Assembly (NCBI GenBank): GCA_003193925.1
Contig: PSPG01000002.1
Location: 41,258-105,257 of the forward strand
Length of the DNA: 64,000 nucleotides
Direction: 5' to 3'
Source of the DNA: Candidatus Thalassarchaeum betae
GTDB lineage: Archaea; Thermoplasmatota; Poseidoniia; Poseidoniales; Thalassarchaeaceae
Positions within the stretch are counted from its first letter, which is position 1. Every line of letters begins with the position of its first letter. Positions 44,428-63,700 of this stretch are shown piece by piece. The translations under genes and the position numbers were made by a program. Under the pieces are notes generated by a model, which saw only the letters and a program-made list of their open reading frames with translations, was not told the DNA's origin and did not search any database.

Positions 44428-45408
44428 TCAGTTCCTCCTGACCAGTAGGATTACTATGAGGACTGACAGGAGCGCGATCGCTATCCAGCGCTGATCGAAG
44501 TCGCTCTGTACCCCTTCATCGTTAGACAGGAACAAATCTTGGGCAGTGTCCAGATGAGGAGACTCGGTCGAGGCCATCAGCACGATGCCCTCTATGTGGT
44601 ATGGGACCCCTCCCCTCATTCCCTTGGAAACCGCCTTTGAATTCGTGATTGAGGCCATTACGAAGTCACAGGTGTCGGCCCTCCTGAGATTCTCGATGGC
44701 CTCGAACTCGCCGCCGCTGTCCAATGGTCTGAAAGGAATTTGCACCTCATAGTGACTCTCCATCCTACTGACGACCATCTTGGAAATCTCGACCTCGTAG
44801 CCCTGCATTTCGGCATTGTCGTCTAGGTTCGACATCGGAGAGTCCTGATTATACATACAGGCCACCAATTCCTTCTCGCCCTCTAAGATACGATAGAGTG
44901 TGCCGCCCTCGGTCGGAGTCGGCCAAGCACCAATGACACTGACGAAATCGGAATCTTTCAGCTCGGTCTCACCGAGGAACCACGTCAGGTACGCCTGCTG
45001 GCCGGTGCTTGAGGAGAATATCCCCCCGAGAGCGGCGTTGATGGCCTGCAGTAACTCTAGGTTGCCCCAGTCGTCTTGAGTGTCGGATCGGGCCACCGGA
45101 ACGTACGATTCGGTCTCCTCGACCATACCGAGGATGGAGAGTCCCGGCAGATTGGCCCTGTTAGCCGGATCGGCGGCGATCAGATTGGATGTCAGCATGA
45201 AGTCGATCTCACCGACCATAAGGGCGCGCATCGCGAACTGATGGTCCTCGTAGCCGGTCTCGATTATGTGCTCGTAAGAGTCGATGAGATGTGATGCGGG
45301 AGTCTCCTGAGAAGTTCCGACGTTGTACTGCAATCCACCTGCTGCAACGGCGGGTGGCGCGGATAGAACCAATGCGCTGAGGCAGAGTGCGACCAATACG
45401 CCCCTCAT
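44428..45408 (-). CDS. Polar amino-acid ABC substrate-binding protein (family 3), apparently circularly permuted, with C-terminal TM anchor
   Basis: SBP3-like motifs ALMVGEID, LLQAINAAL...YLTWF, QGYEVEISK, DFVMASIT, PY; divergent from permease and ATPase. Confidence 0.7.
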   Translation of the reverse strand: MRGVLVALCLSALVLSAPPAVAAGGLQYNVGTSQETPASHLIDSYEHIIETGYEDHQFAMRALMVGEIDFMLTSNLIAADPANRANLPGLSILGMVEETESYVPVARSDTQDDWGNLELLQAINAALGGIFSSSTGQQAYLTWFLGETELKDSDFVSVIGAWPTPTEGGTLYRILEGEKELVACMYNQDSPMSNLDDNAEMQGYEVEISKMVVSRMESHYEVQIPFRPLDSGGEFEAIENLRRADTCDFVMASITNSKAVSKGMRGGVPYHIEGIVLMASTESPHLDTAQDLFLSNDEGVQSDFDQRWIAIALLSVLIVILLVRRN

Positions 45409-45494
45409 GCCCGCGAGGGCCCGCAGGGCCGACTTAGCATTGGTGGTCCACGAGACTATATCCGAAGAAGCGCGTCAGGGGGCGAGGGTTCGCG

Positions 45495-47819
45495 TTGTCC
45501 GGTGGTATCTCACGACTGCTCCACCCAACGGGGAAAAGTGGCAACCGCTACGTCGTCATCCTCTCCTTCTTGATTCTAGCAACCCTGATCACTCCCATCC
45601 AGGGAGTCGAGTACAGAAGCGGTTGGGATGTCGCTGACAGTGGCACCGATGCGGATCTTTTCACGGCGTCCTACGATGGTGAGTCGGTCTTCGCCTTCGG
45701 TGCTGGCGGCGTGATTCTCCAGAGCGACGACAAGGGTTCTACCTGGGTTCAGCTCAGCTCCCCTGCGACGGCCGACCTGCGCAGGTCCGACTCAACAGAA
45801 GCAGTCTACGACCCATTCACAGGCGATTTGAGGGAGAAGGGAGCATTTGCGGTCGTCGGTGACGGTGGGGCGGCCTATCTCCTAGCCGTTGGCAGCGATA
45901 CATGGCAGAACATCTCCTTAGAATCCGCCGTTGACTTCAGAGGGGTTGCGATGACCAGCGCTACCTCATTGGTGACCGTAGGACCGAGCGGGGCTATCTG
46001 GCAGTACCAGAGCGAGGCTTGGACGCAGAGAGACTCCGGAATTGCCTCGGATCTCAATGACATCTCCTTCCTCGATGGCAGCTCGGGCTTTGCAGTGGGT
46101 GACAATGGCATGATACTGGCCACCGATGACGGCGGACAGAACTGGGAGTACAGAGAGGCTCCCGAAGGGCTGGTCGCTAACATTGTGGCAGTCGACTACT
46201 ACAGCGCCATTCGTGCCTATGCGATAACAGACGAAGGGCACATAGTCAAGTCAGTCGGAACGCCCACTGGCACTGCTGTCGGGTTTGTCTGGGAACTGGT
46301 CGAGATCGAGTCGGAGGGCAGGAACACCAGCCTGGGACTCGAACTGAGCTCGATCGACGTATCGTCTGTGAACAAGTTCCTCGTCGCCGGTCCCTCTGGA
46401 TACGTCGCTCTGTCTCTTGACGGCGGCAACATCATCATCCCCCAAATGAACCCCCTGCCTAACGTCACGGACTTCAATCACGTCTCGACGCTCAACCTGT
46501 TCGATGCTGTGCTCGTGGGTGACGGTGGCGTCATCCTGTACAGCGAAAATGCGGGAGAGGACGAGTCCATCGGGTTCCAGGTCGTCGACTTCAGTGACTT
46601 CGGCCAGTTCGTCGACTACTCCAAAGGCATGCTGATGGACGGATTAATCGCCACTATCAAAATCGTCGTATTCGGCATCATGCTGGGTTTTTTCCTAGGA
46701 ATCACGCTCTCGATGATGAAAACCGCTCCGACCACCCTGAAGGAAATTGCACAACTCAATCGCTATGCGTTGGTTAGGCTCTTGCTGCTCCCAATCTGCG
46801 CAATTGAGGCGGTCACGATTGGTTTGGTGAATGGGCCGATGCCCGCAACTCGAGAGGCGGGAAGATTGCGTACGCTGTCCGCGACTTCCACGGGGCCCCT
46901 CAACACCGTAGCCCTGCGGGTATTCGGATTGGGAATGCTAGGCTACGGGACGAAACTGCTTCTCGCTGTAGTCCCCGTAGTCAGGGCCCTCAACCTAGAC
47001 GGTTGGGATTACATCTACGCGCCTATAGGCATCATAAACCCGGAAGGCGTCACTGGACCGATAAGTTTCGTGCCCTTTCTCAGGGTCCTCTTAGGGATAG
47101 CGCTGATCCTCCTGGGCCTGCTATTCATGACCTCGAAGGAATCATTCCCCAAGAGAGAGGTACGTCTGCCATTCCGTGGCATCACGGTGAAGTGGAATCC
47201 CTGGGGTGTGAGGCCGCTGAACGCTGTCGCGACCGTATACACCGACATCTTCCGCAACACCCCTCTGCTCGTACAGTTCTTGTTCATCCACTTCGGGCTC
47301 CAACTGGGCAAGCTGGTTCAGGGGCCCGCGGAGGCGATGCTAGCGGGTTCCACCAGTTTCTTGGCAGAATTCATCATTGACGAATTCCTGAGTGACAGGG
47401 CCTACATCAGCGCCATCTTCGCCCTCGGCCTCAATTCTGGCGCATACCAGTGCGAGACCATACGTGGGGCCATCGCGGCGATTCCCTCTGGCCAGATGGA
47501 GGCAGGCAGGAGCATCGGACTGAACTACATGCAGACAATGAGGCGCGTCATCATGCCGCAGGCAATCAGGATCTGTATACCGCCCATGGGTAACGAGATG
47601 GTCAACCTCGTGCTCAACTCGTCGCTCGCCATGGTCATTGGCTATGCCGAACTGACACGAAAGGGCAAGCTGGCCATCGCTATTACCTGGCAGGTCTTCT
47701 GGGGTTGGGGCATGGTCCTGATCTCTTACTTCATCGTCACTTGGACACTGGCTCTTCTGCTCAGGTATCTCGAGAACAAGACGAGGATACCCGGACTCGG
47801 CATTTCAGGAGGTGCATGA
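45495..47819 (+). CDS. Amino-acid ABC permease (HisM/GlnP type) fused to an N-terminal YCF48/BNR-like beta-propeller
   Basis: G..G.IL.S.D.G..W repeats; FRNTPLLVQ; AYQCETIRGAIAAIPSGQMEAGRSIG (EAA motif); start uncertain. Confidence 0.88.
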   Translation: MSGGISRLLHPTGKSGNRYVVILSFLILATLITPIQGVEYRSGWDVADSGTDADLFTASYDGESVFAFGAGGVILQSDDKGSTWVQLSSPATADLRRSDSTEAVYDPFTGDLREKGAFAVVGDGGAAYLLAVGSDTWQNISLESAVDFRGVAMTSATSLVTVGPSGAIWQYQSEAWTQRDSGIASDLNDISFLDGSSGFAVGDNGMILATDDGGQNWEYREAPEGLVANIVAVDYYSAIRAYAITDEGHIVKSVGTPTGTAVGFVWELVEIESEGRNTSLGLELSSIDVSSVNKFLVAGPSGYVALSLDGGNIIIPQMNPLPNVTDFNHVSTLNLFDAVLVGDGGVILYSENAGEDESIGFQVVDFSDFGQFVDYSKGMLMDGLIATIKIVVFGIMLGFFLGITLSMMKTAPTTLKEIAQLNRYALVRLLLLPICAIEAVTIGLVNGPMPATREAGRLRTLSATSTGPLNTVALRVFGLGMLGYGTKLLLAVVPVVRALNLDGWDYIYAPIGIINPEGVTGPISFVPFLRVLLGIALILLGLLFMTSKESFPKREVRLPFRGITVKWNPWGVRPLNAVATVYTDIFRNTPLLVQFLFIHFGLQLGKLVQGPAEAMLAGSTSFLAEFIIDEFLSDRAYISAIFALGLNSGAYQCETIRGAIAAIPSGQMEAGRSIGLNYMQTMRRVIMPQAIRICIPPMGNEMVNLVLNSSLAMVIGYAELTRKGKLAIAITWQVFWGWGMVLISYFIVTWTLALLLRYLENKTRIPGLGISGGA

Positions 47820-48572
47820 ATGCCAGAGAATGTTTTGAGGGTCACTGATTTGCACAAGATCTACGCCGGAGGGGTCCATGCCGTCCGCGGCGTCTCGTTC
47901 GAGGTCAACGAAGGGGAGTCGGTGGCGATCATAGGTCCCTCAGGAGGCGGTAAGTCGACTGTGCTGCGATGCATCAACCGGCTGATTGAGCCAACCGAGG
48001 GAGTCGTGAGGCTGCGTGGCGAGCGGATCAACACCCCTGGAGCCGATGTCAACGACGTCAGGTCGAGAATCGGGATGGTATTCCAGTCATTCGAGTTGTT
48101 CGCGCACCTGAAGGTCCTCGACAACGTTACACTCGGCCTGAGGCATGTCAGGAAGATGAGCAAAGAAGAGGCCAAGGAAAGAGCTCTGTCGGTGCTCGAA
48201 CGCGTTGATCTTCTGGACAGGATCGATGCCTATCCTGGCAACCTCTCTGGCGGGCAGAAGCAGCGCGTGGCAATCGCCCGGGCTCTGGCGATGAGCCCTG
48301 AGGTCATGCTGTTCGACGAGCCGACCAGCGCCTTGGACCCCGAGCTGATGGGCTCGGTTCTGGCTACCATCAGGAGACTGGCTGACGAAGGAATGACGAT
48401 GGTGATTGTAACTCACGAAATCAGCTTCGCCGAGGACGTAGCTGACCGTATCATCTACCTAGATGAGGGCGTGATAGCCGAGCAGGGACCCTCCTCGATC
48501 ATTGAGGACCCGCAGAGCGAGCGGCTCAAGAGGTTCCTGTCCGCGATTAGCGAGGGGGAGGAATATCAGTGA
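47820..48572 (+). CDS. Polar amino-acid ABC transporter ATP-binding protein (GlnQ-like)
   Basis: GPSGGGKST, LSGGQKQR, LFDEPTSALDPE, VTHE. Confidence 0.95.
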   Translation: MPENVLRVTDLHKIYAGGVHAVRGVSFEVNEGESVAIIGPSGGGKSTVLRCINRLIEPTEGVVRLRGERINTPGADVNDVRSRIGMVFQSFELFAHLKVLDNVTLGLRHVRKMSKEEAKERALSVLERVDLLDRIDAYPGNLSGGQKQRVAIARALAMSPEVMLFDEPTSALDPELMGSVLATIRRLADEGMTMVIVTHEISFAEDVADRIIYLDEGVIAEQGPSSIIEDPQSERLKRFLSAISEGEEYQ

Positions 48573-48584
48573 GCGAATCGAGAA

Positions 48585-49940
48585 CTAGACCATTCCTTGG
48601 GCCTGCATGGCCTCAGCGACCTTGAGGAAGCCGGCGATGTTCGCACCGGCGACGTAGTTGCCAGGCATGCCGTACTTCTCTGCAGTCTCGAATGCGTTCT
48701 TGTGGATGTTCACCATGATGGCCTCGAGCTTCTGGTCGACCTCGTCGCGAGTCCAGCTCATCCTGAGGCTGTTCTGGCTCATCTCGAGCCCGGATGTCGC
48801 GACGCCGCCGGCGTTGGACGCCTTTCCGGGTGCGAACAGGACTCCGTTGGCTTGGAAGCACTCTACTGCCTCGGGGGTGCAGGGCATGTTGGCGCCCTCA
48901 GCAACGGCGGTGACCTCGTTATCGACGAGCATCTGCGCCTCCTCACCGTTGATCTCGTTCTGGGTTGCGCATGGCAGAGCGATGTCGACATTGACCCCCC
49001 AGAGCCCATTCAGGTTGGGCTCGGGCTTGGAGGCGGTGTACTCGACCCCGTCGAAGTGGTCTGCGAACTCCTTGATGCGCCCCCGGCGGTTGTTCTTGAG
49101 GTCCATGATCCAAGCGAGCTTCTCCCTGTCGATTCCGGCAGGATCGTGGATGAAGCCGCTGCTGTCGGACAACGTCACCGGCTTGCCACCGAGGTCGATG
49201 ACCTTCTCGCATGCGAACTGGGCAACGTTGCCCGAGCCGCTGATGGCGACCGTGGCCCCCTCGAACGACTTGTCCTTGGTCGCGAGCATCTCGCGAGCGA
49301 AGTAGACCAGACCGTACCCGGTCGCTTGGGGGCGGATCAGGGAGCCTCCGTAGGAGCGGCCCTTGCCGGTCAGGACTCCGGTGAACTCGTTGGCTAGTTT
49401 CTTGTACATCCCGAACAGGTAGCCTATCTCGCGGCCGCCGACTCCGATGTCGCCCGCAGGGACGTCGAGGTCTGCGCCGATGTGGCGCCACAGCTCCATC
49501 ATGAAGGACTGGCAGAAGCGCATGACCTCACCGTCGGACTTGCCCTTGGGGTCAAAGTCGGAGCCGCCCTTACCACCGCCCATCGGTAGGCCCGTCAGGC
49601 TGTTCTTGAAGACCTGCTCGAAGGCGAGGAACTTCAGTATGGACTGATTGACGCTGGGGTGGAACCGGAGGCCGCCCTTGTAGGGGCCGATGGCACTGTT
49701 GAACTGGATTCGGAATCCGCGGTTGACGTGGAAGTCGCCGTTGTCGTCGTACCAAGGCACGCGGAACTGGATGATCCTCTCCGCCTCGACGATGGCTCGG
49801 ACCACCTGGAGATACTCGGGATGGGCCTGGATCACAGGCACTAGGCTGTCTAGGACCTCCTCTACCGCCTGATGGAACTCAGGCTGGTTCGGGTCTCTTG
49901 CGATTACGCCGTCGTACACTGACTTCATTGTGCTGTCCAT
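48585..49940 (-). CDS. gdhA: NADP-specific glutamate dehydrogenase
   Basis: EFHQAV, GPYKGGLRFHP, GGGKGGSDFDP, DVPAGDIGVG, GSGNVA, EGANMP. Confidence 0.96.
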   Translation of the reverse strand: MDSTMKSVYDGVIARDPNQPEFHQAVEEVLDSLVPVIQAHPEYLQVVRAIVEAERIIQFRVPWYDDNGDFHVNRGFRIQFNSAIGPYKGGLRFHPSVNQSILKFLAFEQVFKNSLTGLPMGGGKGGSDFDPKGKSDGEVMRFCQSFMMELWRHIGADLDVPAGDIGVGGREIGYLFGMYKKLANEFTGVLTGKGRSYGGSLIRPQATGYGLVYFAREMLATKDKSFEGATVAISGSGNVAQFACEKVIDLGGKPVTLSDSSGFIHDPAGIDREKLAWIMDLKNNRRGRIKEFADHFDGVEYTASKPEPNLNGLWGVNVDIALPCATQNEINGEEAQMLVDNEVTAVAEGANMPCTPEAVECFQANGVLFAPGKASNAGGVATSGLEMSQNSLRMSWTRDEVDQKLEAIMVNIHKNAFETAEKYGMPGNYVAGANIAGFLKVAEAMQAQGMV

Positions 49941-50068
49941 GGGCGTCACCAAGGCGAATGAACGATTCCTGTTTGAGGGACCGGGTGCTTGCGCGACTGA
50001 GGGGGTCCTTTTGAAGGGTGTCCTTGCCCGATGAGTGCGCGGTACGGCCCCGTAGGGGCCGATAATTC

Positions 50069-51385
50069 TCAGCCGAACAGATGCCTTTCGGCCAACTGAG
50101 CCACAGTGGACTCATGGCCGGGCAGAGTGATTACATAGGCTGCTGACTGGCTCACTTGGCGCGTCCTCAGGGCCTCTGCGATGGGCGTGTGCTCGCGCAG
50201 CCAGCGAGTGCGTCCGTCGTCGCCTACTATCCTGACATCGACCTTGGAAATACGAGGCTCGGCCAGCAGGAGTTTCACGTCCGGGACGTCTACCGCGACG
50301 TACCCGGGAGGCAGTCCTGCTCGGTTGGCCATGTCGTCCTCGAACTGCCTGCGTGAGTCCGCATTGGTGGCGAGCTCGTGCAGGCGTTCGACCTGACCCT
50401 CGGAGAGCTCCTCCCTGCGACGACTGGCGCAGACCTTCAGCAATTGTCGGTACTTCAGTCTGCGAATCATATCGCGGGCGTAGTCACCAGCACCCCCGAG
50501 AGCCTCCCAGATCTCTGCGTCGACCCGGCGCTGCAGGTCGAGCGAGTCAGGCATCTGGTCCGAACTGCGCTCGACGGCTCTGGACAGCATGACCTCGGTG
50601 ACCCGGGTGACCCGGTGGAAGTAGACGGCGCTGTACATCAGCGCTCGAGCCGTCATCATCCCCTCGAGGGCAGGCAGGCCGCCTTCCTCTACGGCGATGT
50701 CGCCGCCGTTGCGCTCGAGGCACATGATGAGTCGGCGGTGATCGACGATACCGTGCTTGACGCCGGTGAAGTGCGAATCACGCAAGAGGTAGTCGAGCTG
50801 GTCGCAGTCAACGGGGCCGTGAATCAGATGAGCTAGTGTGAGGTCTTGGTCCACGAAGTCCTCACGGCCCTCGGTCCACGTCATCAAGGAGCGTTCGCTA
50901 CCTCCGGCGCCGGGGCCGCGGATGAGGCCTGCTATCTCCTTCGGGTCCAAGCCGCGTCGCTCGAGTATGTCGTGGACCCTCTGCCTGTCGGGCACCGACG
51001 ACTCCTCGCCGTCGCGGAGGACGTCGTAGTCGCCAAGGATGATGCCCTCGGTGATCGACATGTGGTCCTTGCCACCGCGCTCGTGCAGTATATGCTCGAG
51101 CGTGTGCGAGTACGGTCCATGACCTACGTCGTGAAGCATTGCAGCGGCCTGTACCGTCGCCGTCTCGTGCTCGTCCAAGCCCAGTGACTCCGCCATCATC
51201 CCGGCGATGTGCGATGTCCCAAGGGAGTGCTCGAACCTGGTGTGGTGAGCGCCGGGGAACACCAAATGAGCCAGCCCAAGCTGCTTGATGTGGCTGAGCT
51301 TGTTCATCTCCGGAGTCCCGAGCAGATCCTCTCGGACTCCGTCCAGTCTGAACTGCCCGTGGATTGCGTCGTTGATGACCTTCAT
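50069..51385 (-). CDS. HD-domain phosphohydrolase (dNTPase / SAMHD1-like)
   Basis: HTRFEHSLG, LHDVGHGPYSH, DCDQLDYLLRD, MYSAVYFH. Confidence 0.9.
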   Translation of the reverse strand: MKVINDAIHGQFRLDGVREDLLGTPEMNKLSHIKQLGLAHLVFPGAHHTRFEHSLGTSHIAGMMAESLGLDEHETATVQAAAMLHDVGHGPYSHTLEHILHERGGKDHMSITEGIILGDYDVLRDGEESSVPDRQRVHDILERRGLDPKEIAGLIRGPGAGGSERSLMTWTEGREDFVDQDLTLAHLIHGPVDCDQLDYLLRDSHFTGVKHGIVDHRRLIMCLERNGGDIAVEEGGLPALEGMMTARALMYSAVYFHRVTRVTEVMLSRAVERSSDQMPDSLDLQRRVDAEIWEALGGAGDYARDMIRRLKYRQLLKVCASRRREELSEGQVERLHELATNADSRRQFEDDMANRAGLPPGYVAVDVPDVKLLLAEPRISKVDVRIVGDDGRTRWLREHTPIAEALRTRQVSQSAAYVITLPGHESTVAQLAERHLFG

Positions 51386-51499
51386 GCGCGACCCTGCGGG
51401 GCTTCGACATGCCACCTCCCCTTGAATCGCACTATCGTCACGCTTTGCGAAGCCGGCCGGCCCCCAGTACATCGGACGCCGCAGTGGCACCCATCGTAA

Positions 51500-51533
51500 T
51501 TCAATTGTCTTTCAATTGCAATACATTCAAGTG
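51500..51533. promoter_or_regulatory. Candidate operator: TTCAATTG x2 plus TTCAAGTG between divergent HD and RHH genes
   Basis: Repeats at 51500, 51511 and 51526 in an AT-rich island. Confidence 0.5.
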
Positions 51534-51569
51534 CCTGAGCCTATCTGCCCGGGTCAGGAGGAACCCGAA

Positions 51570-51947
51570 GTGCCCGGCATCAGCCCAATGGTCTCGCTGA
51601 GAATACCTGAGGACCACCTGTTGGAAATCGACCATCGAGTGGGCTACGACGGAATGCGAAACCGCTCCGACGTGATTCGCCAAGCGGTGCGCAGGTATCT
51701 CTCCTCGCCCATGCCTATGATTGGGGAGAGGGTGAGGATCGAGGTCGACCTGGGGCCTGACCTGACTGTGCGAATGCGGGAGTTCTGCAAACTGCACGGC
51801 GAGTCTGCGGGCACGGTGCTGCGCCAAGCAGCCAGGGAGCACATCCGCAGAGCCACAGTCGAGGATGCGACCGTGGACAGGATCCTCTCAATGCGCATGG
51901 ACGAGCTCCGGGCGCGCTTCGATGACGATTCGAACGCTATGAGGTGA
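51570..51947 (+). CDS. Ribbon-helix-helix (CopG/NikR-like) regulator with two RHH units
   Basis: MVSLRIP...NRSDVIRQAVRRYL and IEVDLGP...GTVLRQAAREHI. Confidence 0.82.
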   Translation: MPGISPMVSLRIPEDHLLEIDHRVGYDGMRNRSDVIRQAVRRYLSSPMPMIGERVRIEVDLGPDLTVRMREFCKLHGESAGTVLRQAAREHIRRATVEDATVDRILSMRMDELRARFDDDSNAMR

Positions 51948-52007: not shown

Positions 52008-52233
52008 CCAACCTGTCATATGCGGCCTCGAGGCGCTACGAGCCCGAGCCAAACTGTCCAACGCAGCCGGCTATGATCCGAGCGAGGCTCCGCGGGGTTC
52101 TCGTGGAGTCACTCGCAAGACCGATCGCGAGCGCCAATATTGACATTAAACACACACCGTCCCGCACATCTCGTGCGGGACACCCCCATCCCTACAGTCT
52201 GAAGTTTGATGCAGGATGCTGTCATCCGGTGCC

Positions 52234-55146
52234 ATGGACGGGGGAATCTCGGACTGGAGCCGGCTTGAGCGGCTCACTCCATTCAGGATCCGCGATGTGC
52301 TCCTGGTGGCGAGCCACTTCGATCACTACCTGCTCGAGGAATCGGGGTACCTCGCCGAGATAATGCGACGGGAGTACTCCGACCTGAGTTTCTCTCAGGC
52401 CCCGCGCATTATTCACAGCCCGGAGGCGGGCGACGCGCTCAGACTGCTTCGCTCGCGGGACTTCGACCTCGTCATCACGATGACGAGGGTCGGGGAGATG
52501 GACGTCAAGGCGTTCGGCAGCGAAGCCAAGCGGATCAGAGATGGACTCCCTGTGGTCATGCTGAGCCACAACACCCGCGAGTTGGCGACGCTCAGCGCGG
52601 GAGACGGCATCGACCGCATCTTCGTTTGGACCGGCGACAGTCGCATTCTCCTCTCGATCTGCAAGCTCATCGAGGACGAGCGTAACGTGGAGAACGACGT
52701 CCGTGACGGGGATGTCCAGGTCATTCTGCTCGTTGAGGACAGCAGGAGGTTCTACTCGGTCTACCTGCCGCTGCTGTACACTGAACTGGTCAACCAGACA
52801 ACCCGACTGATGGGGGAAGGCGGCAACCTGTACGAGAAGCTGCTGAGGCTGCGGGCAAGGGCGAAGATACTCCTCGCTTCGGACATGAACACCGCGAAGT
52901 CGATCATCGATCGCTACCATAACAACATCATCGGCATCTTCACCGATGGCAAGTTTCCCAACCAAGGAGGGAACAGGGATACTGCCGGGCTGGAACTGAT
53001 CCAGTACGCACAGGAGGGTCATCCCTACATGCCCATCCTGTTACAATCGAAGAACCTCGAGCTCAGGGAGGACGCCGAGGCGATGGGGGTCCGCTTCCTG
53101 CACAAGGAGGACTCACAGCTGTACCACAGGATCGAGGAGTTCATGGTCGACGAGATGAATTTCGGCGACTTCATCTTCCGCCTGCCCGATGGGACTGAGG
53201 TCGCGCGGGCCACCGACCTCGAGGAACTGATAGATGGCCTTGAGAACGCGCCGATAGAATCCATCGAGTACCATGCCTCGAAGAACCAGTTCTCGCACTG
53301 GCTCAGGACACGGACCGAATTCTCCCTAGCCGCCGGCATGAGGCCGATGACGGTGGAGGACTTCGACACCAGCGAGGGAGTCAGGAAGTACCTCGCTGAC
53401 TCGGTTCGACAGCACATCTCACAGATTCGTAGGCGCACCATCAGGGACCATGACGCCAGAGTCGGGGGTGCTGGCTTCCAGAGAATCGGCAGAGGCAGCC
53501 TCGGAGGCAAGGGGCGTGGCCTCGCGTTCTTCTTCACCCGGATGCCAGACCTCCGCCTCGGGGCGGCCTTTCCGGATGTCGAGTTCATCGTACCGAGATC
53601 CGTCGTGATCGCGACAGACGTCTTCGAGGAGTTCGTCGAGAGCAATGAACTCAGCAGGTACGCCCACGAGGACCACAGCGATCCCGAAGTCGACGAGGCA
53701 TTCCTCGCCGGCGAGTTCCCGCCAGAGCTGAGAGACGAGATATCAGTCTTGCTCGAGAACACCAAGTGGCCTCTGGCGGTTCGCTCTTCGAGCCTTCTCG
53801 AGGACTCGAGCCACCAGCCTTTCGCGGGGGTATATGCCACGCACATGCTGGCCAACGACCACCCCGATTTGAAAGTCAGGCTCAGGCGACTGCTCGAGGC
53901 GATCAAACTTGTATACGCCTCCACGTACCACCGCAGCGCCAAGGCGTATGTGACGGCCACGCCGAACACAATCGAGGACGAGCGTATGGCCGTGGTCGTC
54001 CAAGAGCTCGTCGGCGATGAGGTGAACGGGCGCTTCTACCCGCTCATCTCGGGGGCTGCGAGGAGTCACAACCACTATCCAGTGGAGCCGCTTGTGGCAG
54101 AGGATGGATTTGCAGCCATCTGCATAGGCCTCGGCAGGCAGGTCGCCACGGGTGGCAAGTGCCTGAGATACAGCCCCGGCCAGCCGAAGAGGGTGCACCA
54201 GTTCTACAGCAACCAAGCCATACTCGACACCTCCCAGCGCAACTTCTTCGCCATTCCGATGAATCAGGAGGATGGCTCCGTGCACCCCTCCGAGGAGGAC
54301 AACCTCCTGAATCTGCGTCTGTCTGCGGCCGAGGAGGACGGAAGCCTCGCTCTGGTAGGCTCGACCTACATCGTCTCGGACGACCGCATGGTCGACTCAG
54401 TCATGGTCGATGGCGGCCCCAGAGTCGTCACCTTCGCTCCGGTGCTCAAGCACGGACGCTTCCCCCTCTCTGAGATCCTGCACCACGTCCTCACCGCATG
54501 CCAGAACTACATCGGCTCACCCGTGGAAATCGAGTTCGCTCTGTCAATCGACCGAGACTCGGGGAGTCAGAAGTTCGCCATACTCCAAATGAGACCGATG
54601 ATGGAGGAGTCGGTCGACATCGACATCGACCTCGGGGAGGTCGACCGGGACAAGGCCATATGCATCTGCAGTCAGTCGCTCGGCAACGGCGTGATAGAGG
54701 GCATCAGGGACATCGTGTACGTCCACCCCGGGCGACTCGACCGGATGCGGACCACAGACCTCACAGACAAGATAGAGGCCATCGATGCGGGGCTGAGAGC
54801 TGACAAGCGGCCATACGTGCTGATCGGACCAGGGAGATGGGGCTCGGCGGACCCATCACTCGGAATCCCCGTGCAATGGGACCAGATCATGGGCTCCAAG
54901 GCGATAGTCGAGGTCCCAATGTCTGACATCCACGTTGAGCCCTCTCAGGGCACCCACTTCTTCCAGAACATCGTCACCTTCAACATCGGCTACCTCACCA
55001 TCGGTGCAGAAGACTTCGTCGACTGGGATTGGCTGGACTCGCTGGATGCTGTAACCGAGTCGGGCGCGCTTCGCCACGTCAGCCTCGCCGAGCCGCTGAA
55101 GGTGATCCTAGACAGCCGCGATTCCGAGGCGATCATCACCAGATGA
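52234..55146 (+). CDS. PEP/pyruvate-binding (PPDK_N ATP-grasp) protein with N-terminal receiver-like domains
   Basis: ILLVEDS...IFTDG...LQS...HK receiver; IGRGSLGGKGRGL, LAVRSSSLLED, FAGVY, MAVVVQE, VEIEFA, LQMRP; C-terminal GPGRWGS...SQGTHFFQN. Confidence 0.85.
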   Translation: MDGGISDWSRLERLTPFRIRDVLLVASHFDHYLLEESGYLAEIMRREYSDLSFSQAPRIIHSPEAGDALRLLRSRDFDLVITMTRVGEMDVKAFGSEAKRIRDGLPVVMLSHNTRELATLSAGDGIDRIFVWTGDSRILLSICKLIEDERNVENDVRDGDVQVILLVEDSRRFYSVYLPLLYTELVNQTTRLMGEGGNLYEKLLRLRARAKILLASDMNTAKSIIDRYHNNIIGIFTDGKFPNQGGNRDTAGLELIQYAQEGHPYMPILLQSKNLELREDAEAMGVRFLHKEDSQLYHRIEEFMVDEMNFGDFIFRLPDGTEVARATDLEELIDGLENAPIESIEYHASKNQFSHWLRTRTEFSLAAGMRPMTVEDFDTSEGVRKYLADSVRQHISQIRRRTIRDHDARVGGAGFQRIGRGSLGGKGRGLAFFFTRMPDLRLGAAFPDVEFIVPRSVVIATDVFEEFVESNELSRYAHEDHSDPEVDEAFLAGEFPPELRDEISVLLENTKWPLAVRSSSLLEDSSHQPFAGVYATHMLANDHPDLKVRLRRLLEAIKLVYASTYHRSAKAYVTATPNTIEDERMAVVVQELVGDEVNGRFYPLISGAARSHNHYPVEPLVAEDGFAAICIGLGRQVATGGKCLRYSPGQPKRVHQFYSNQAILDTSQRNFFAIPMNQEDGSVHPSEEDNLLNLRLSAAEEDGSLALVGSTYIVSDDRMVDSVMVDGGPRVVTFAPVLKHGRFPLSEILHHVLTACQNYIGSPVEIEFALSIDRDSGSQKFAILQMRPMMEESVDIDIDLGEVDRDKAICICSQSLGNGVIEGIRDIVYVHPGRLDRMRTTDLTDKIEAIDAGLRADKRPYVLIGPGRWGSADPSLGIPVQWDQIMGSKAIVEVPMSDIHVEPSQGTHFFQNIVTFNIGYLTIGAEDFVDWDWLDSLDAVTESGALRHVSLAEPLKVILDSRDSEAIITR

Positions 55147-57766: not shown

Positions 57767-60700
57767 TCAGGCATCGGCGTCGATGAGGTAAGAATCCCGC
57801 TCTGGGATGTCCTGCAACTCGTCTATCTCCTGAAGCACTGTGGACAACGCCATCTGTGCGTTCTGTCGGTGAGGCTCGCCCAGCACGTGACTGGAGTACC
57901 TCGCTTCCTCGAAAATCCTGTCCAGGGCAACGAGGGCCTGCTCACTGATCGGCAGGGCGTTGCGAATCGCCATCTCGAACTCTCGCACCGTCTCGAAGTC
58001 CCTGCGCAGGAATCCTCTGCGCATGAGTATCTGGCACAGGCTCTCGTAGCAGTTGAAGATGGCCTCGCGGACCTCATCGCCTGCTGCCAGCAGCTCGGCG
58101 GTGTAGCTGAACACGCTGGCGAGTTCGTCGATGGCCGCCTGTCTGCGCCGACGGACCAGCACGAAGGCCCCGGCCACCACACCGAGGACGATCAGGACGA
58201 CGAGTGCGTACAGAGCCGGCTGGAATGACGGCGAGGCCTGCTGCTCGTACTCGATGTCAAGCCCACCGTGGTAATTGGCGAGCCACGTCTTGTTGATCGG
58301 GTCGACGAAGTCCGAGTCGGTGCTGAAACACACACGCATCTCGCCCCAGAAGCTCTGATTGTAGAATGGGGCTAGGCCAGCGACCGCCTCGAAGTGGTAG
58401 GTGAACAATCCATCCTGGTCGGTCAGCCCGACCACGCTGAAGTGAGTGGAGGAGTGCTTGTTGTCGCAGGTGCCGTTCACCAGATAAGCCGACAGTGAGA
58501 AGTCGGGCACGGACTGCCCGGTGTCCAGCGCGGAGACGTTGACGGAGCCTTGCAGCAGCCTCTTCCCCTCGGCCAAGTAGAGCGAGTCCGGCTCGAAGTC
58601 GAATACGACGGAGATCAGAATCATGACTTCGACTTCGATGATGTCCCCATTCAGGTATCTCGAGCCGTCGGGCTCGACCCTTATCGTTAGGGTCAGTGGG
58701 CCCGGTGGCATGACTTGAATCGCATTGGTGATGAGTCCGAAGTGCTCGGTCCCGTCATCCTGCCACGGATTGCCTCTCAGAGGCAGGAGGCTGTCCTCCC
58801 AATGCAGTGATATCGTCATGTTGTGCATGACGTTGCCTTCGCCGCCTATCTCCAGTATGCGTCCATTCAACTTGATCGGGGAGTCCGGATCGCCGCGGAT
58901 AATCACCAGGTTGTTCGAGAACACCTCGATGACGATGTCCGCCCTCGTGTACACGGTCATGTTGTACTGCACTGGCAGGTAGTATGTCTCGCCGGCGAAC
59001 GAGAAAGCGATGTTGTGGGGTCCGCGGGCGATTGCGTAGCCGGCGTCGTGAGTGTAACTGAATGTGCCGTCGATCGAGGTGGTCAGCATACCTACGACCT
59101 CTCCGTCGAGCCTGAGGGTCAGCTCTCTGTCCTCCAGACCGGGACGTCCCGAGGAGTCGTCGTCGAAGAGGCGCCCGGTGAAGTTCCAGGTCCCTCCGCG
59201 GGTTATGACGGTGGAATCCACCTGCAGGGTCATACCGGTGTGGTAGGCGACCGTCAGCACGGTCTCTGCCGAGCTAAGGCGGTGATAGCCCTGCTCAGGG
59301 GCCCTGACGGTCAGAGTGTGGTTGCCCACTTCGAGGAAGTCCGAGACTATCCAGACGTAGTTCCACTCCCCGTTCTCGTCGGTGCTGGTTATGCCCACCA
59401 GCACGCCATCGACGAAGATCTGCAGCGAGTGGTTGGCCAGCCACCCCCCCGGCAGGTTGTCCTTGACAGTCCCTCGTAGAGCTAGGGAGTCCCCGACGGC
59501 GACCGAGGACGGCTTGACCACGGAGACCTCCACCGGCCCGTAGACGGTGAAGATGGTCGAGGAGTTGGAGCCTAGGACGAACTCCTCGCCCTGGTAGGAT
59601 ATCAGCACCACGCGCGGGCCCAGCTCCATGTTCGGCGGCACCGGGATGTACAGGCTGAAGGTCCCGTTCTCATCCACTGACAGCCCAGTCAGGAACTGCC
59701 CGTTCATCGAGACCTCGAGGTTCCTGTTAGGCAGCACCCTGCCTGAGCCGTCGGTCAGCATGCCCTCGATCAACAGCAACTCGTTGCGGTCGATCTCGCC
59801 CGGAGGAGTCGTCAGCACGATCTGCGAGGTCTGGAGCGCATTGAACTCCGTAGTATGGGATGATGGCAGGTAGTATTCCGGATTCAGGGAATCGCCCTGT
59901 CCCATCGGGTCGACCCAGGTGAAGCCGCCGAGGAAGCTCACGGTGACCGTGTGCATCCCGTAGTCCGTGTCTAGAGGCAGGTCGTAGGTGATTGCCCACT
60001 CGCCGGTGCTCGCGTTGGACTGCGTCGAGTAGACCGGGCCGACGCTGACGCCGTCGATGGCTAGGTGGATTACGCCGCCGGCGGGGTTGCCGCCGTGAAT
60101 CAGGAACTGGCCGTGCTCGTCGAGCAGCGTGCCGCTGAACGTGACCGTCTCGCCTGCTATCACGGAGCCAGTGATAGTGCTGATGTCGAGCTCTGTCGGC
60201 GCCAGTATGATGACGCGTGTCCATGTCTCGTCTCCCAGCAGGCCGGTAGTGCCGTTGATTCCGGCAAACTGGGCCGTGATAGTCATCGGACCGGGTGCTC
60301 GCATGTAGTCCACGGGCAGAACGGCGTTCATCGAGCCGTTGACGTCCGTGGTTCCGCGCCACTCGAAGGTGCCGTCTACCAACAGGTCCACTGGCTCGGC
60401 GACGACTGGCTGCCCGGCGTTGTCGACGAGGGAGATGTTGACGCTGACGACGTCGCCGCGGATGGTTCTGCTGTCGGGGTCGAGGTCCAGCGGGTCGACA
60501 ATGGTGAGTAACGAGTAACCGCGGCTGTCGAAGGTTCCGTTGCCGGTGCTCGAGCCGTAGTAGTTGACATTGGGGGTGTAGGTGGCCATCAGGTCGTGCG
60601 TCCCCCTCAGGAAGGTGAGGTCGAGGCGGATGTCGGCGTTCCAAGAGCCGTTCGGCGACACCGCCCCACCTGTCACGGTGAATGTGTTGCTCTGGCCGTC

Positions 60701-63700
60701 GATGCTGAACGTCAGCGCCGGTGACAGGGTGTTGCCGTCCCTGTCCGTGATGCCGCTGCCGTTGCTGGACGTCAGCGTGCCGCTGACTGTGAAGGACTCG
60801 CCTGCAGCGGGGTTGTCGGTGATCGGGTCGAGTGCGAGGTTCGTCGGCGACCTGACCGTGATCGTGGTGATGATGGTCGCCGTCGAGTGCAGGGTGCTAG
60901 AGCCGTTGAACATGAGTGTGATGGCAATCAGCCCCAGAGGATGGGAATGCAGCACTTCAAAGGAGAAGTTGGTAACTCCGACGCCGTTGGTCTGCACCGG
61001 GGTGAGCCAGGTGTCGTGGAACTTCGCGGCGACGGTCGCGTCTCCAATCTGCCTGTCGTTGTCGCTCGACTCGACCAGTCGGGCACCGAAGCTGATGAAA
61101 GAGCCTCTGTCGACGACCGTGTTGATGATTGGGGTCTTGTCGACGAACTGGGTCACGCCGCGGACGAGGATCGAAGCGTTCCCGGTGCCGGTCAGGTAGA
61201 ACGGCGTGCTCCCGTTGATGACGCTGACTACGACGGTCTTGGCCCCGCTGGTGACCCCGTCACCCAGGGGATCGGTCGGGACAGAGATGGTGAACGAGCC
61301 ATTGCTCGTCGTCGTCTGGCTCTCTACCAGCGTCTCACTGGAGTCGTTCAGGAAGAAGACCTCGACAGCCATCGGCCCATTGACGGTCCTGTTGCTGTCC
61401 ACGGCATCGATGACCCGCCCGCTCATTGTGAATGCCTGCCCGGCTGTCACCTCGAGCGGGATGCTGTCGATCTCAATGAAGCTCGAGACCTGTACTGTCA
61501 GGTCCGCGAAACTGTCGTTGCCGATCCACCGTCCGGCGTCACTGGCTGACAGGTTGTCCGTGATGTCATCGGGTGCGTGTACGCGGAGCGTGTAGTACCC
61601 GGGCGGGGTCGATGCGGGAATCGTCGGGCTGAATATAGCGACACCGTCGGTACCTGAGGTACTGTTCTCGAAGATCTGCTGGAGCGGCCCCCCCCAGTCG
61701 AAGTACAGGTCAGCGAAGACGTCTTTCAGAGGGGCGCCGTCCTCGACATCGGTGATCGTCGCATTGAGGATCATGGTAGAGCCGGCAACGACTATCAGAG
61801 AACTGGGCGCGGCCTCGACCACAAACTCGGTCTGGATGCCGGCACTGACGTAGTCGGCTTCTTGCTCTTTGAAGTAGTAGCCCCCGGGAGGGGGAGAGGT
61901 GGAGAAGCCCAGCGTCACTTTGAGATCGTAGACCCCCGAGCCCACTCCGCTAGGCATTACGAAACTCAGGTTGTACCCCCCGGTAGCCGGGTCTATCCAG
62001 CCCGATGCGAGGCGATAGATTACAGGTGACGCCGGCGAGCCATCGGGGGCGGGGGGAAGGTCGGAGGGAACCTCGAGTTGGACCAGCACTGAGGAGTTAT
62101 TCCCCAGAATCGGTATATCGTGGAAGATGTCATTCGCGAATCCCGCGACCCAATTGGTGTTTCCCCTCGGAGTCCATTCGAGACCGAGCTCGACAGTGGC
62201 GTTGGCCCTGCCTAGAATCCTGATCTCATCTACTGCCGTGGCGGGATGCAACCACGTCGAGCCGGAGAAGTTCAGCACCCAGCTGTAGTCACCTGCGAAC
62301 AGCTCCCACGGCGGTGTCCAGGAGACTGCCAGCCTCGGGAGGTCGGGATCTGTGACGTTCCAAGACTCGTTACCATTGAACACGAGTACGTATGTCCCTG
62401 AGAAGCCGGCCAAGGAAGTGTTCGTGTGATCAGTCAGAACCACCTCGACGCTAGCCTCGTTGCCTCTGAGGGTTGGGCCTAGGGTGTAACTGAAGTTGAT
62501 GAAGCTCCTGATGCCGTATTGGTCGATGAAGGTGATCTGATCGTTGGCGAACAGGCCCTCCGAGTCGAACTCGACCTTCACCTGCACCTCACCGGACGGG
62601 ATGGGGACCTCAGAGCCGGTGAACTGCCAACTGACAGCGAATTGCCCGGGTGTCGAGGTCCAGTTGCTGTCGTTGAGGTACCACGTCTTGAGGGTCGTGT
62701 AGGGGCCGTTCGTGGTTGAGCGCCGCATCTTTAGAATCAGAGTTCCGTTCAGAGACTCGGGGCTCGGACCGCGGCTCAGAACAGTCCCGTTGAGGTATAT
62801 CGGCGAGTCGATGTCCAAGATGGAATTGTTGGCGTCCGCGCCCTCCAGAGTGACCGTGAGATTGGGCGCGGGCGTGATGTTGAACATGAAGTCGACAGTG
62901 GCTGGCCTGATGTGGTAGGAGGGCGTGCTGGCATTGTTCAGGTCCTCCTCGTGCCAGCCGAAGAAGTTCAGTGAGGCGTTGATCAGTCCGAGTGGCTCGC
63001 TCTCGTTAATCGACAACGAGAACTCGTAGTATCCACCCGCTCCGATTTCAGCAATCAGGCTCACCGGACCGTCGCTGGCGGTGGTGTAGTTCAGCACGGC
63101 CTGCATATTGTCGATCCTCGATGGGTCGGTGTACGGGGTGCTGGCCCAGGACATGTCGCCCGATACCAGCGTATCCACCCCGGCTCCCAAGGGGGGCTCG
63201 TCGGGGGGAGGAGGTTCCCTCAGAGAGAGATTAACGTCATCCGAGATGTTCAGCCTCCACTCGAAGGAGACTCCCTGTGAGCCGACGTACGCCTTCTCGA
63301 GAACATGCAGGACGAGAGAGCCGAAACCCGGATCTATGACGATTTCCGGAGTTCCATTGAGTTGGAAGCTGCCGTTCTGATCGGTCGTTCCGTTGGCGAC
63401 CAAGTGCTGGCTGACAGCCGCGCTCCCAGGGACGTTAGCTGTTTCATTGGACTTGACCAGATACAGGTTCATCGAGATGTTTTCCGCGGGTGTGGCATTG
63501 TCCACGAACTGTAGGGTCCCATTGAGCCAGATGGTTCCGGTTGAGAGATCCCTCTCGACCCACGTCGGCCCCCACTCCTCGTTCACCACCTCAACCGCAG
63601 CCGCCTCCGGGCAGGCCTCGAACGGAATCCATCCCATGTCCAGACCGCCTTGGTTCTGATTGGTCTCGAGGTGGACCTCGACCCATCTGGTGAAGTCCTT

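Follow-up and report, generated by a model that had tools for sequence, protein, structure and literature searches.

A dikinase-like protein with tandem receivers in a marine archaeon and its possible link to glutamate dehydrogenase

Introduction

What is the function of a protein in which two receivers precede a dikinase-type ATP-grasp domain, encoded in an archaeal genome where no histidine kinase was found? The question is raised by a gene of Candidatus Thalassarchaeum betae, located in a window of 64,000 nucleotides (the whole stretch of DNA that was analysed). The adjacency of related genes to gdhA in many bacteria hints that nitrogen metabolism may be under a control not yet described. 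Glutamate dehydrogenase (GDH) stands where carbon and nitrogen metabolism meet, and, a few model systems aside, little is understood of how bacteria and archaea control it on short time scales. Because the family is large, widely conserved and repeatedly found beside gdhA, and because no publication on it was found in the literature searched, it is a concrete and testable candidate for a new regulatory mechanism.

Results and Discussion

Domain organization of the protein

The ORF encodes 976 aa (Table 1). The earlier note had recognised the ORF itself, with its start placed at 52234; this is the second ATG (M7) and gives a product of 970 aa, and a 970-aa database representative (P0002) is 99% identical to the ORF read from that ATG. 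The motifs quoted there, LLVEDS, IGIFTD, SIEYHASKNQFSHWL and PSQGTHFF, were each present in the translation, and the domain reading proved correct by Pfam, the AlphaFold model, the Foldseek matches and an alignment of 85 sequences.

Table 1. Positions in the window of the ORF, its domains and the neighbouring genes discussed in the text.
Feature	Positions	Strand	Basis or remark
Whole ORF, stop codon included	52216..55146	+	Translation; 970-aa representative at 99% identity
REC1, aspartate-less pseudo-receiver, residues about 24-140	52285..52635	+	Model fold, PleD matches, alignment, weak PF00072
REC2, canonical receiver, residues about 166-300	52711..53115	+	E174, D175, D244, S278 and K297 kept
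DUF5752-like hairpin and helical linker, residues about 317-410	53164..53445	+	Sub-cut-off PF19027; secondary structure of the model
PPDK_N-type ATP-grasp, residues 428-798	53497..54609	+	Pfam, 85-sequence alignment, Foldseek
C-terminal domain, residues about 805-976	54628..55143	+	Swivelling beta/beta/alpha fold in the model; no PF00391 sequence match
GdhA-type glutamate dehydrogenase	48585..49952	-	Sole GDH of the genome; conserved genomic partner of the family
HD/HD_assoc_2 gene	50069-51490	-	Between GDH and the ORF; lineage-specific backbone
113-aa ORF (u113), unknown	51501-51842	-	Between GDH and the ORF; lineage-specific backbone
ABC ATPase, permease and binding protein	44428-48572		Neighbourhood annotation

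The AlphaFold model of the full-length protein (pLDDT 89.9, pTM 0.85) was matched best by the rifampin phosphotransferase Rph (5hv1, E 8e-12) in Foldseek, with further matches to HpeI (9goj), PEP synthase (2ols, 584 columns) and PPDK (1kbl, 687 columns). Two receiver folds are visible in this model, and the N-terminal part is matched best by PleD structures. In REC1, the pocket positions are occupied by S/A-S (32-33) and T/M (88-89) in the 85-sequence alignment; PF00072 (Response_reg) scored 15.5 bits on residues 69-122 of this receiver against a cut-off of 30.2, and reached values above the cut-off on homologues. In REC2, the pocket is retained, with E174 in 81/85, D175 in 76/85, the acceptor D244 (codon 52945-52947) in 77/85 and K297 in 83/85 sequences, and with Ser at position 278 in 80/85 and Thr in 3 more. 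PleD-type regulators likewise carry tandem receivers of which one is degenerate, whereas their output is a GGDEF domain instead of an ATP-grasp/His module, and in the archaeal protein the degenerate receiver comes first. According to the accessible part of a survey of aspartate-less receivers, pyruvate phosphate dikinases are listed among the linked effector domains (PMC4395418).

The linker was matched by DUF5752 (PF19027) at residues 330-406 with 18.9 bits, under the cut-off of 23 and covering profile positions 18-108 of 208; a precomputed PF19027 match is present on some homologues. A histidine of this segment, H353, is kept in 76/85 sequences.

The ATP-grasp domain was detected as PPDK_N (PF01326) with E 5e-34 and a score of 118 bits, the cut-off being 27. 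Residues G430, K432, R523, S524, S525 and Q791 are kept in 85/85 sequences, E773 in 84/85, R793 in 83/85 and E771 in 80/85, and G431, R434, E529 and D530 are also invariant or nearly so; we take these residues to correspond to the nucleotide- and Mg-binding residues of PPDK. NCBIfam matches were partial and stayed far under all cut-offs; the Rph family, for instance, gave 20 bits where 999 are required.

The PEP/pyruvate TIM barrel had been described as absent, and the Pfam scan of the protein indeed gave no such match and no PEP-utilizers domain match. Nothing in that scan beyond PPDK_N represents a third, phosphoryl-acceptor-binding domain, and the protein ends after its 170-aa C-terminal domain. 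The PPDK_N ATP-grasp is shared with Rph (RPH-Lm; 5hv1 and 5fbs) and the PpsA-like dikinases PigC/RedH and HpeHI, and in Rph, too, a small His-bearing domain stands at the C-terminal end. Unlike these enzymes, the archaeal protein has two N-terminal receivers and no substrate-binding middle domain. With PPDK and PEP synthase it shares the order of an ATP-grasp followed by a swivel-like domain, but it lacks their TIM barrel.

The C-terminal domain has a probable swivel-like fold and a near-invariant histidine

The C-terminal domain had no Pfam match and was modelled separately (pLDDT 90). When this model was compared by VIA-align with 48,161 chains, the first rank was taken by residues 368-510 of PPDK 1vbg (Z 7.4, 127 residues aligned), next to which stood the PPDK phosphoryl-carrier domain 2fm4 (7.3), the C-terminal domain of pyruvate kinase 2e28 (6.9), residues 756-865 of Rph 5hv1 (6.9) and Enzyme I domains (5.7-5.9). 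Phosphohistidine-type domains (PPDK, pyruvate kinase, Rph and Enzyme I) occupied 7 of the top 9 rows in this comparison and all top 11 rows in a second one, the best structural match over both being the PPDK central domain (Z 7.4-7.6). The suggested comparison with the swivel fold therefore turned out in favour of a swivel-like domain at fold level, with Z values of 5.7-7.6 that are middling (<8) and that, by the tool's own warning, may reflect a common arrangement. Other swivelling beta/beta/alpha folds, namely RraA, LdcA/MccF and chaperonin apical domains, ranked close behind. Foldseek with the C-terminal model returned no match at E <=1e-3, PPDK 5lu4_B being third with E 0.03.

By sequence, unlike in Rph-type dikinases, the domain is unrecognisable as PF00391 (PEP-utilizers), which matched 0/68 C-terminal domains at E up to 10; a canonical PEP-utilizers domain was likewise not found in the host genome. 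A PDB profile search with the domain gave nothing relevant, only a chance synaptobrevin-like match at E 0.97, and hhalign against 17 true swivel (PEP-utilizers) domains gave a probability of 0.3%. The sole hhalign segment pairs LGIPV motifs, and its register, extended by hand to the catalytic His position, would put R874 there in place of a His. The catalytic histidines, which we take to be His825 in Rph and His458 in the maize enzyme, fall at about residue 118-122 of the 185-residue model when interpolated from the VIA-align ranges, a position that adjoins His914 (index 123) and is distant from R874 (index 83).

The C-terminal histidine pointed out in the earlier note is conserved: His914 (codon 54955-54957) is present in 84/85 aligned sequences, in 68/68 C-terminal domains and in 22/22 sequences of marine group II (MGII) archaea. 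It opens a helix (914-921) in the models and is the only near-invariant histidine of the protein outside the linker. His914 is thus a candidate phospho-carrier, placed in a motif G-S/T-H-F-F-Q/H-N as against the T-S-H motif of PPDK and PEP synthase. Compared with a plain swivel domain, this one has about 60 additional residues, and a second invariant motif, GPGRWGSxDPxLGIPV (871-886), of which GPGRWGS is an addition relative to PPDK and PEP synthase, is found in it together with E899. The ATP-grasp and the swivel-like domain follow each other in the order known from PPDK, PEP synthase and rifampin phosphotransferase.

The receiver is an orphan in the host genome

The window had been said to contain no histidine kinase, and none was found in it. 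HisKA gave 0 matches across the 1.48-Mb host genome (91.8% complete); HATPase_c gave 2, both on other contigs and identified as GyrB and topoisomerase VI-B. Because the host genome shows no histidine kinase, in which it differs from the setting of PleD-type regulators, REC2 is an orphan receiver there. Its pocket is intact in 22/22 MGII sequences. The archaeal member is a natural experiment in which the full receiver pocket persists although no histidine kinase was found in the genome. In the family sample, carrier genera had 1-3 weak HATPase_c matches with gyrB/top6B-like scores, and strong kinase-like matches were confined to genera in which the gene was not found, all matches outside the host genome (G000) being classed by score alone.

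Distant relatives are often encoded next to GDH

Neighbouring genes were examined in distant relatives (<50% identity). A query with the single protein yielded 5 non-MGII loci, and the breadth of the sample came from an alignment-based metagenome scan and from genome searches. GDH was present at 38/68 distant metagenome loci, rising to 23/34 where the flank was at least 1.5 kb on both sides; it was not within the available flank at 30/68 of these loci and at 3/5 named non-MGII genome loci. Planctomycetota genomes had GDH at 17/30 loci with flanks of only 1.5 kb, and in a second phylum, to which a Desulfatibacillum-like genome belongs, it was present at 10/15. At the GDH-positive loci (n = 52), GDH lay within 500 bp in 43 and upstream on the same strand in 38. 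The gdhA neighbourhood that the earlier note had described for bacteria is thus real, as counted in metagenome loci and in loci from two bacterial phyla.

Across the 75 non-MGII loci, GDH alone among the neighbour clusters occurred at more than 6. The ABC transporter, to which the earlier note had drawn attention together with gdhA, is not supported as part of the system by this count, and it was ruled out, as were the HD gene and u113, all three being absent from non-MGII loci. Paralogues of about 600 aa without receiver adjoin a second GDH class and retain both the His and all of the C-terminal motifs.

A proposed receiver-gated dikinase-like enzyme tied to GDH

With moderate confidence, the protein is read here as a receiver-gated phosphohistidine dikinase-like enzyme that lacks a third, substrate-binding domain and is functionally tied to GDH. 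The ATP-grasp domain would pyrophosphorylate or phosphorylate His914, at a rate that may be set by the state of Asp244 through changes in how the domains pack or in dimerisation, in the manner of PleD. In its His~P form, the protein could then act on GdhA, either by phosphate transfer or by phosphorylation-dependent binding as proposed for VadK with methylcitrate-cycle enzymes, and the outcome would be a switch on the 2-oxoglutarate/glutamate node. Since no histidine kinase was found in the genome, the receiver would obtain its phosphate from a small phospho-donor or from the His~P of the same enzyme, or would work unphosphorylated.

In the accessible part of its description, VadK (Rv1127c) of Mycobacterium tuberculosis is a PPDK without TIM barrel that autophosphorylates on His422 in dependence on ATP and Mg, pulls down two metabolic enzymes and is a proposed regulator by binding methylcitrate-cycle enzymes (PMC13400623). 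By this description it is likewise a dikinase relative reduced to an ATP-binding and a His domain, but it has no receivers, derives from a true PPDK and has methylcitrate-cycle partners as against GDH here. A more far-reaching version of our reading is offered tentatively and is somewhat unlikely to hold in full: the family may be a protein-directed histidine dikinase that switches GdhA-type GDH post-translationally in many bacterial phyla and in MGII, with ATP charging His914, the phosphate or the phospho-form passing to GDH, and the enzyme's own His~P also charging Asp244 in kinase-free archaea as a one-protein phosphorelay. As a regulatory family, these proteins would carry the dikinase mechanism (ATP-grasp plus carrier His) beyond small-molecule phosphorylation into signalling, next to VadK.

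The phosphate of His~P might be destined not for the GDH protein but for a GDH-linked metabolite (2-oxoglutarate, glutamate, a nucleotide cofactor or another), the adjacency reflecting a shared pathway. The characterised relatives named by the searches, namely PEP synthase, PPDK, Rph, PigC/RedH and HpeHI, all phosphorylate or activate small molecules, as is stated for HpeHI in the accessible part of its report (PMC12167813), and the additional C-terminal residues with the GPGRWGSxDPxLGIPV motif and E899 could form a binding site. We consider such a small-molecule dikinase unlikely: an acceptor-binding domain is not recognisable in the protein, a second metabolic gene is not conserved nearby, and the two GDH classes, each with its own paralogue, are easier to reconcile with a protein partner than with a metabolite in common.

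A relay from ATP to His to Asp had been put forward, with GdhA as the alternative target. In its self-contained form, phosphate would pass from ATP to His914 and on to Asp244 of the same protein or of a dimer partner, the phosphorylated receiver being the output. Such a relay is consistent with the HisKA and HATPase_c results in the host genome, with the HATPase_c pattern across carrier and non-carrier genera, and with the receiver pocket being kept throughout the MGII sequences although no kinase was found in the host genome. However, the receiver-less paralogues beside GDH retain the His and the motif set, so that the His has a role independent of Asp244 and a His-to-Asp relay is unsupported as the core function. 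A relay ending on its own receiver would moreover have no output domain, kinases are plentiful in bacteria carrying the family, and the pattern across genera depends on the classing by score noted above; taken together, these points make the relay distinctly unlikely.

The gene is an accessory insert near the archaeal GDH

In the archaeon, the association with gdhA that holds in distant relatives does not take the form of an operon: GDH lies 2.3 kb off, is encoded on the other strand and is separated from the gene by two others. The distance was 2.2-2.4 kb in 19/20 carrier genomes of the same family, whereas in a sister MGII family (f3) the gene was off the GDH contig in 7/7 genomes, one of them without any GDH found, and at three loci of that family it adjoins ABCE1 and ribosomal protein L10e. 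Between XPD and the u113-HD-GDH backbone the gene forms an indel; the backbone itself is kept by carrier-free relatives (G311 and G313). The archaeal GDH is of the GdhA type and 60-68% identical to the bacterial partner GDHs; GDH occurs in 148/151 genomes of the order Poseidoniales and looks vertically inherited.

The family comprises 1,055 clusters at 50% identity (E <=1e-30), spread from Planctomycetota to marine archaea, and is patchy in Poseidoniales (27/151 genomes). In an unrooted FastTree, all MGII sequences group in a single clade, with bacterial sequences around it. The proposed acquisition from bacteria fits this patchiness, the insertion polymorphism and the MGII clade, and the archaeal gene is an accessory insert of probable bacterial origin; the direction of transfer is not proven, since the tree is unrooted.

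The nearness to GDH in this archaeon could be chance, an acquired gene having happened to insert there, with no GDH role here. The indel, the contrast between a near-universal, vertical-looking GDH and a patchy gene, and the different neighbours of the sister-family copy all speak for it. We regard it as very unlikely, for the association in bacteria greatly exceeds what chance would give, the MGII proteins conserve the core at the level of single residues, the genome's sole GDH is of the same GdhA type as the bacterial partners, and a functional link is possible without adjacency. Least probable is that the protein is no phosphohistidine enzyme, its ATP-grasp being a ligase or an ATP/ADP sensor and its C-terminal domain, conserved His included, serving only for structure or docking: the missing PF00391 similarity, Z values below 8 and the hand-extended register at R874 would agree with this, but the domain order matches dikinases, His914 stands at a helix N-terminus next to the interpolated catalytic position and far from R874, the ATP-grasp catalytic residues are invariant, and PPDK_N-type ATP-grasp domains are, to our knowledge, known only in His-carrier enzymes.

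Additional observations

A literature match for GDH, dikinase, response regulator and ATP-grasp (PMC12096838) was unrelated, judging from the accessible part of its text. Three metatranscriptome runs cover small shares (0.03-0.08) of the words of the window, with contigs of 109-408 nt located in GDH, the HD gene, u113, the intergenic stretch beyond u113, and XPD, and, within the first 700 nt of the ORF, at 52603-52755 and 52720-52923; these matches do not establish transcription and give no transcript ends. In MGII relatives, a flag of one TGA was raised for 8/10 full-length matches reaching profile position 984-985 and for one C-terminal fragment; the flags are read as the natural stop being read through by the search, not as recoding.

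A putative five-part receiver-dikinase conserved across a large family

The receiver-dikinase joins a pseudo-receiver (REC1), a receiver with the acceptor Asp244 (REC2), a DUF5752-like linker, a PPDK_N ATP-grasp domain and a C-terminal domain carrying His914, and its host is a marine group II (MGII) archaeon whose nearest loci are named Candidatus Thalassarchaeum or Poseidoniales. The start used in the earlier note, 52234, is the second ATG of the ORF and agrees with a 970-aa database representative that is 99% identical; every motif quoted there was found in the translation, confirming the observation. PPDK_N (residues 428-798, E 5e-34) was the only Pfam domain above threshold, with sub-threshold matches to DUF5752 (330-406) and Response_reg (69-122), and Pfam detected neither a PEP-utilizers domain nor a PEP/pyruvate TIM barrel in the ORF. 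In NCBIfam, part of the ATP-grasp region matched PigC, RedH, PEP synthase and Rph, each far under cut-off, and the best match of a PDB sequence search was the Rph ATP-binding domain at only E 0.02.

Coordinates of the receiver-dikinase and of the other features described (window positions unless stated)
Feature	Position	Strand	Length	Content
Receiver-dikinase, single ORF	52216-55146	+	976 aa	
Stop/start overlap with XPD	55143-55146			ATGA
Listed XPD helicase ORF start	55029			TTG
u113	51501-51842	-	113 aa	
HD gene	50069-51490	-	473 aa	HD + HD_assoc_2, dGTPase-like
GDH (gdhA)	48585-49952	-		Glutamate dehydrogenase
Propeller-permease ORF	45495-47819	+	774 aa	BNR/YCF48-like beta-propeller segment + ABC permease domain
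Giant ORF	57767-64000, past window end	-	>2,077 aa	Transglutaminase core, Big_3_5, DUF4129; weaker MG2/CarboxypepD_reg-like matches
Second receiver protein (L125)	C7:3930-4205 of host genome G000, outside window		244 aa	Proline-rich linker, C-terminal hydrophobic helix

A scan of the full set of 1.84 billion cluster representatives returned 4,409 relatives at E <=1e-3 and 1,055 at E <=1e-30. The best 150 were mostly 950-1,010 aa long and aligned end to end at 31-45% identity, indicating an old and widely distributed five-part architecture; the searched literature contained no characterisation of the family. An alignment of 85 sequences showed G430, G431, K432, R434, R523, S524, S525, E529, D530, E771, E773, Q791 and R793 of the ATP-grasp domain to be invariant or nearly so. 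The acceptor pocket of REC2 was complete (E174 81/85, D175 76/85, D244 77/85, S278 80/85 plus 3 T, K297 83/85), and that of REC1 was lost (S/A-S at 32-33, T/M at 88-89). His914 was kept in 84/85 sequences, the only other common histidines being H353 in the linker (76/85) and H954 (64/85). The C-terminal domain has a second invariant motif, GPGRWGSxDPxLGIPV together with E899, which is absent from plain swivel domains.

The C-terminal domain resembles phosphohistidine domains in structure

The full-length AlphaFold2 model was confident (pLDDT 89.9, pTM 0.85). In Foldseek searches of the PDB, its C-terminal two thirds matched Rph (5hv1, E 8e-12), HpeI (9goj), PEP synthase (2ols, 584 aligned columns) and PPDK (1kbl, 687 columns), and the tandem receivers matched PleD. 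The C-terminal domain was also modelled separately (residues 792-976, with 68 homologous segments; pLDDT 90.0, pTM 0.86). Foldseek returned no match to this model at E <=1e-3, PPDK standing at rank 3 with E 0.03. VIA-align against 48,161 representative chains placed the central domain of maize PPDK first (1vbg 368-510, Z 7.4, rmsd 4.0, 127 aligned), and phosphohistidine-type domains filled 7 of the top 9 rows. Among them were the PPDK phosphoryl-carrier domain on its own (2fm4, Z 7.3), a PEP-utilizer-like domain at the C-terminus of B. stearothermophilus pyruvate kinase (2e28, Z 6.9), the His domain of Rph (5hv1 756-865, Z 6.9) and the phosphohistidine domains of Enzyme I and EI-Ntr (Z 5.7-5.9); a match with Z below 8 can stem from a common arrangement. 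When Foldseek's 1,000 candidates were re-scored, PPDK, pyruvate kinase and Rph made up the whole of the top 11 rows (Z 6.5-7.6). Behind them, at Z 5-6, came further swivelling beta/beta/alpha folds (RraA, LdcA/MccF, aconitase X, chaperonin apical domains).

At the sequence level the C-terminal domain is not of the PEP-utilizers type: PF00391 was found in 0/68 members, a PDB profile search gave no relevant match, and hhalign against 17 genuine swivel domains from four genomes gave a probability of 0.3%. The hhalign alignment covered only DPwLGIPV of the C-terminal domain with AREhGIPa of the swivel domains, and extending this register back by hand count would put R874 at the swivel catalytic His. 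In the model, strand 894-900 is followed by a loop, a helix starting at His914 (914-921) and strand 925-928, the same order as around the T-S-H motif of PPDK. Linear interpolation of the VIA-align ranges put the catalytic histidines, His825 in Rph and His458 in maize PPDK, at about model residues 118-122, where His914 is index 123 and R874 index 83. Because the strand-loop-helix order and the interpolated position both point to His914, we think that the R874 register is wrong and that His914 would lie at the carrier place, as placed by these two features and not by residue-level superposition.

The gene is linked to glutamate dehydrogenase in distant lineages

The association with gdhA, which the earlier note had stated for bacteria, was borne out by independent locus counts in metagenomes, Planctomycetota and a second phylum.

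Loci with GDH near the receiver-dikinase gene
Loci	GDH near gene	Details
Close MGII	12/13	GDH ~2.2 kb upstream, opposite strand; 13th ends inside HD gene
Named non-MGII genomes	2/5	Positive: Planctomycetota MAG, uncultured archaeon
Planctomycetota, best 30 loci, only 1.5-kb flanks	17/30	12 GdhA-type, 5 second class
Phylum of Desulfatibacillum-like genome	10/15	
All metagenome loci	43/74	
Metagenome, <50% identity to query, GdhA-type GDH	38/68	2 more with second class alone
Metagenome, <50% identity, >=1.5 kb flank both sides	23/34	

The Planctomycetota sample comprised 301 species genomes, 53 with a match at E <=1e-50; a full-length match was present in 13/301 genomes of the phylum of the Desulfatibacillum-like genome. 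Among the 52 distant GDH-positive loci, GDH lay within 500 bp in 43, upstream on the same strand in 38 and downstream on the same strand in 8, an arrangement that looks like an operon. Clustering of the non-overlapping ORFs that flank the gene in 75 non-MGII loci placed GDH in 35 loci and every other family in <=6.

Some loci (L093, 311-8236; L103, 5923-14129) carry in order a receiver-dikinase, GdhA, a second-class GDH and a receiver-less 600-aa paralogue. The two GDH classes appear to be paired with separate partners. The paralogue consists of the ATP-grasp and C-terminal domains alone and keeps His914 and the other invariant residues. Its retention of His914 beside GDH indicates that the ATP-grasp and His domains together form the core linked to GDH, and that the His has a role independent of the receiver Asp.

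The receiver is kept in a host lacking detectable histidine kinases

The host genome (1.48 Mb, 91.8% complete) gave no match to HisKA and two to HATPase_c, read as GyrB and topoisomerase VI-B. PF00391 was likewise without a match in this genome, and canonical PEP synthase, PPDK and Enzyme I were thus undetected. Only one other receiver protein was present, of 244 aa and membrane-anchored; it is the sole protein of the genome scoring PF00072 above cut-off, and no histidine kinase was found in the genome. In a 41-genome family sample, carrier genera had only 1-3 HATPase_c matches with gyrB/top6B-like scores, and strong kinase-like matches were confined to two genera where the receiver-dikinase was not found; outside the host genome the HATPase_c matches were judged by score.

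E174, D175, D244, S278 and K297 were nevertheless kept in 22/22 MGII sequences (48-100% identity). The MGII receiver is either charged, by a small phospho-donor or by the enzyme's own His~P, or its pocket is kept for another reason. The conservation of the pocket in a kinase-free host is the best argument for the His-to-Asp relay proposed in the earlier note, but the receiver-less paralogues show that such a relay cannot be the core function of the family. The earlier interpretation is supported in part: the gdhA linkage is among the points that hold, the relay as core function is not.

As a working model, a receiver-gated, dikinase-type engine working on or with GdhA is the most likely: the ATP-grasp domain would use ATP to form His914~P, the receiver pair would gate this reaction, and the engine would act on, or together with, GdhA. 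E. coli GdhA reportedly undergoes acid-labile phosphorylation, according to work of the 1990s. Rph and HpeI are closest to the receiver-dikinase by sequence and structure; in its logic, no studied system comes nearer than VadK of M. tuberculosis. VadK is a PPDK minus the TIM barrel that autophosphorylates at His422 and retrieves methylcitrate synthase and dehydratase in pull-downs (PMC13400623). In a survey of aspartate-less receivers, pyruvate phosphate dikinases figure among the linked effector domains (PMC4395418).

The locus is an indel site in the window's own family of Poseidoniales

The receiver-dikinase was found in 27/151 sampled Poseidoniales genomes (12/58 high-quality ones; 7/22 genera), and GDH, single-copy in the host, in 148/151. 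In the window's own family, the gene and GDH lay 2.2-2.4 kb apart on one contig in 19/20 carriers; in the remaining carrier the contig is broken at this point. Gene and GDH shared a contig in 0/7 carriers of the sister family f3 (one without any GDH found); the gene adjoins ABCE1 in three f3 loci examined, and ribosomal protein L10e precedes it in the sole locus scanned upstream. Carrier-free relatives of the same family retain the backbone of XPD, u113, HD gene and GDH, indicating that the receiver-dikinase is an indel, situated ~2.3 kb from GDH. Its transcription diverges from that of the u113-HD-GDH string. What this window adds is the kinase-free archaeal setting, together with the indel at the locus.

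In a FastTree of 76 sequences, all 12 MGII members formed one clade (support 100) inside a group whose other members came from Planctomycetota and metagenomes; a Desulfobacterota clade stood apart, outside this group. The grouping fits a single acquisition from bacteria, followed by loss or spread in the order, as read from an unrooted, FastTree-only tree with the direction unproven. No base-composition anomaly was seen.

The HD gene is the immediate upstream neighbour of GDH, on the strand that GDH occupies, and keeps this place throughout the MGII family, in carriers and non-carriers of the receiver-dikinase alike. The receiver-dikinase stop TGA overlaps an in-frame ATG of XPD, the listed XPD start lying upstream of this overlap; the two genes may be translationally coupled, though relatives have XPD without the receiver-dikinase. 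Elsewhere, the window holds the giant ORF, and the propeller-permease ORF sits between the genes for a family-3 solute-binding protein and an ABC ATPase.
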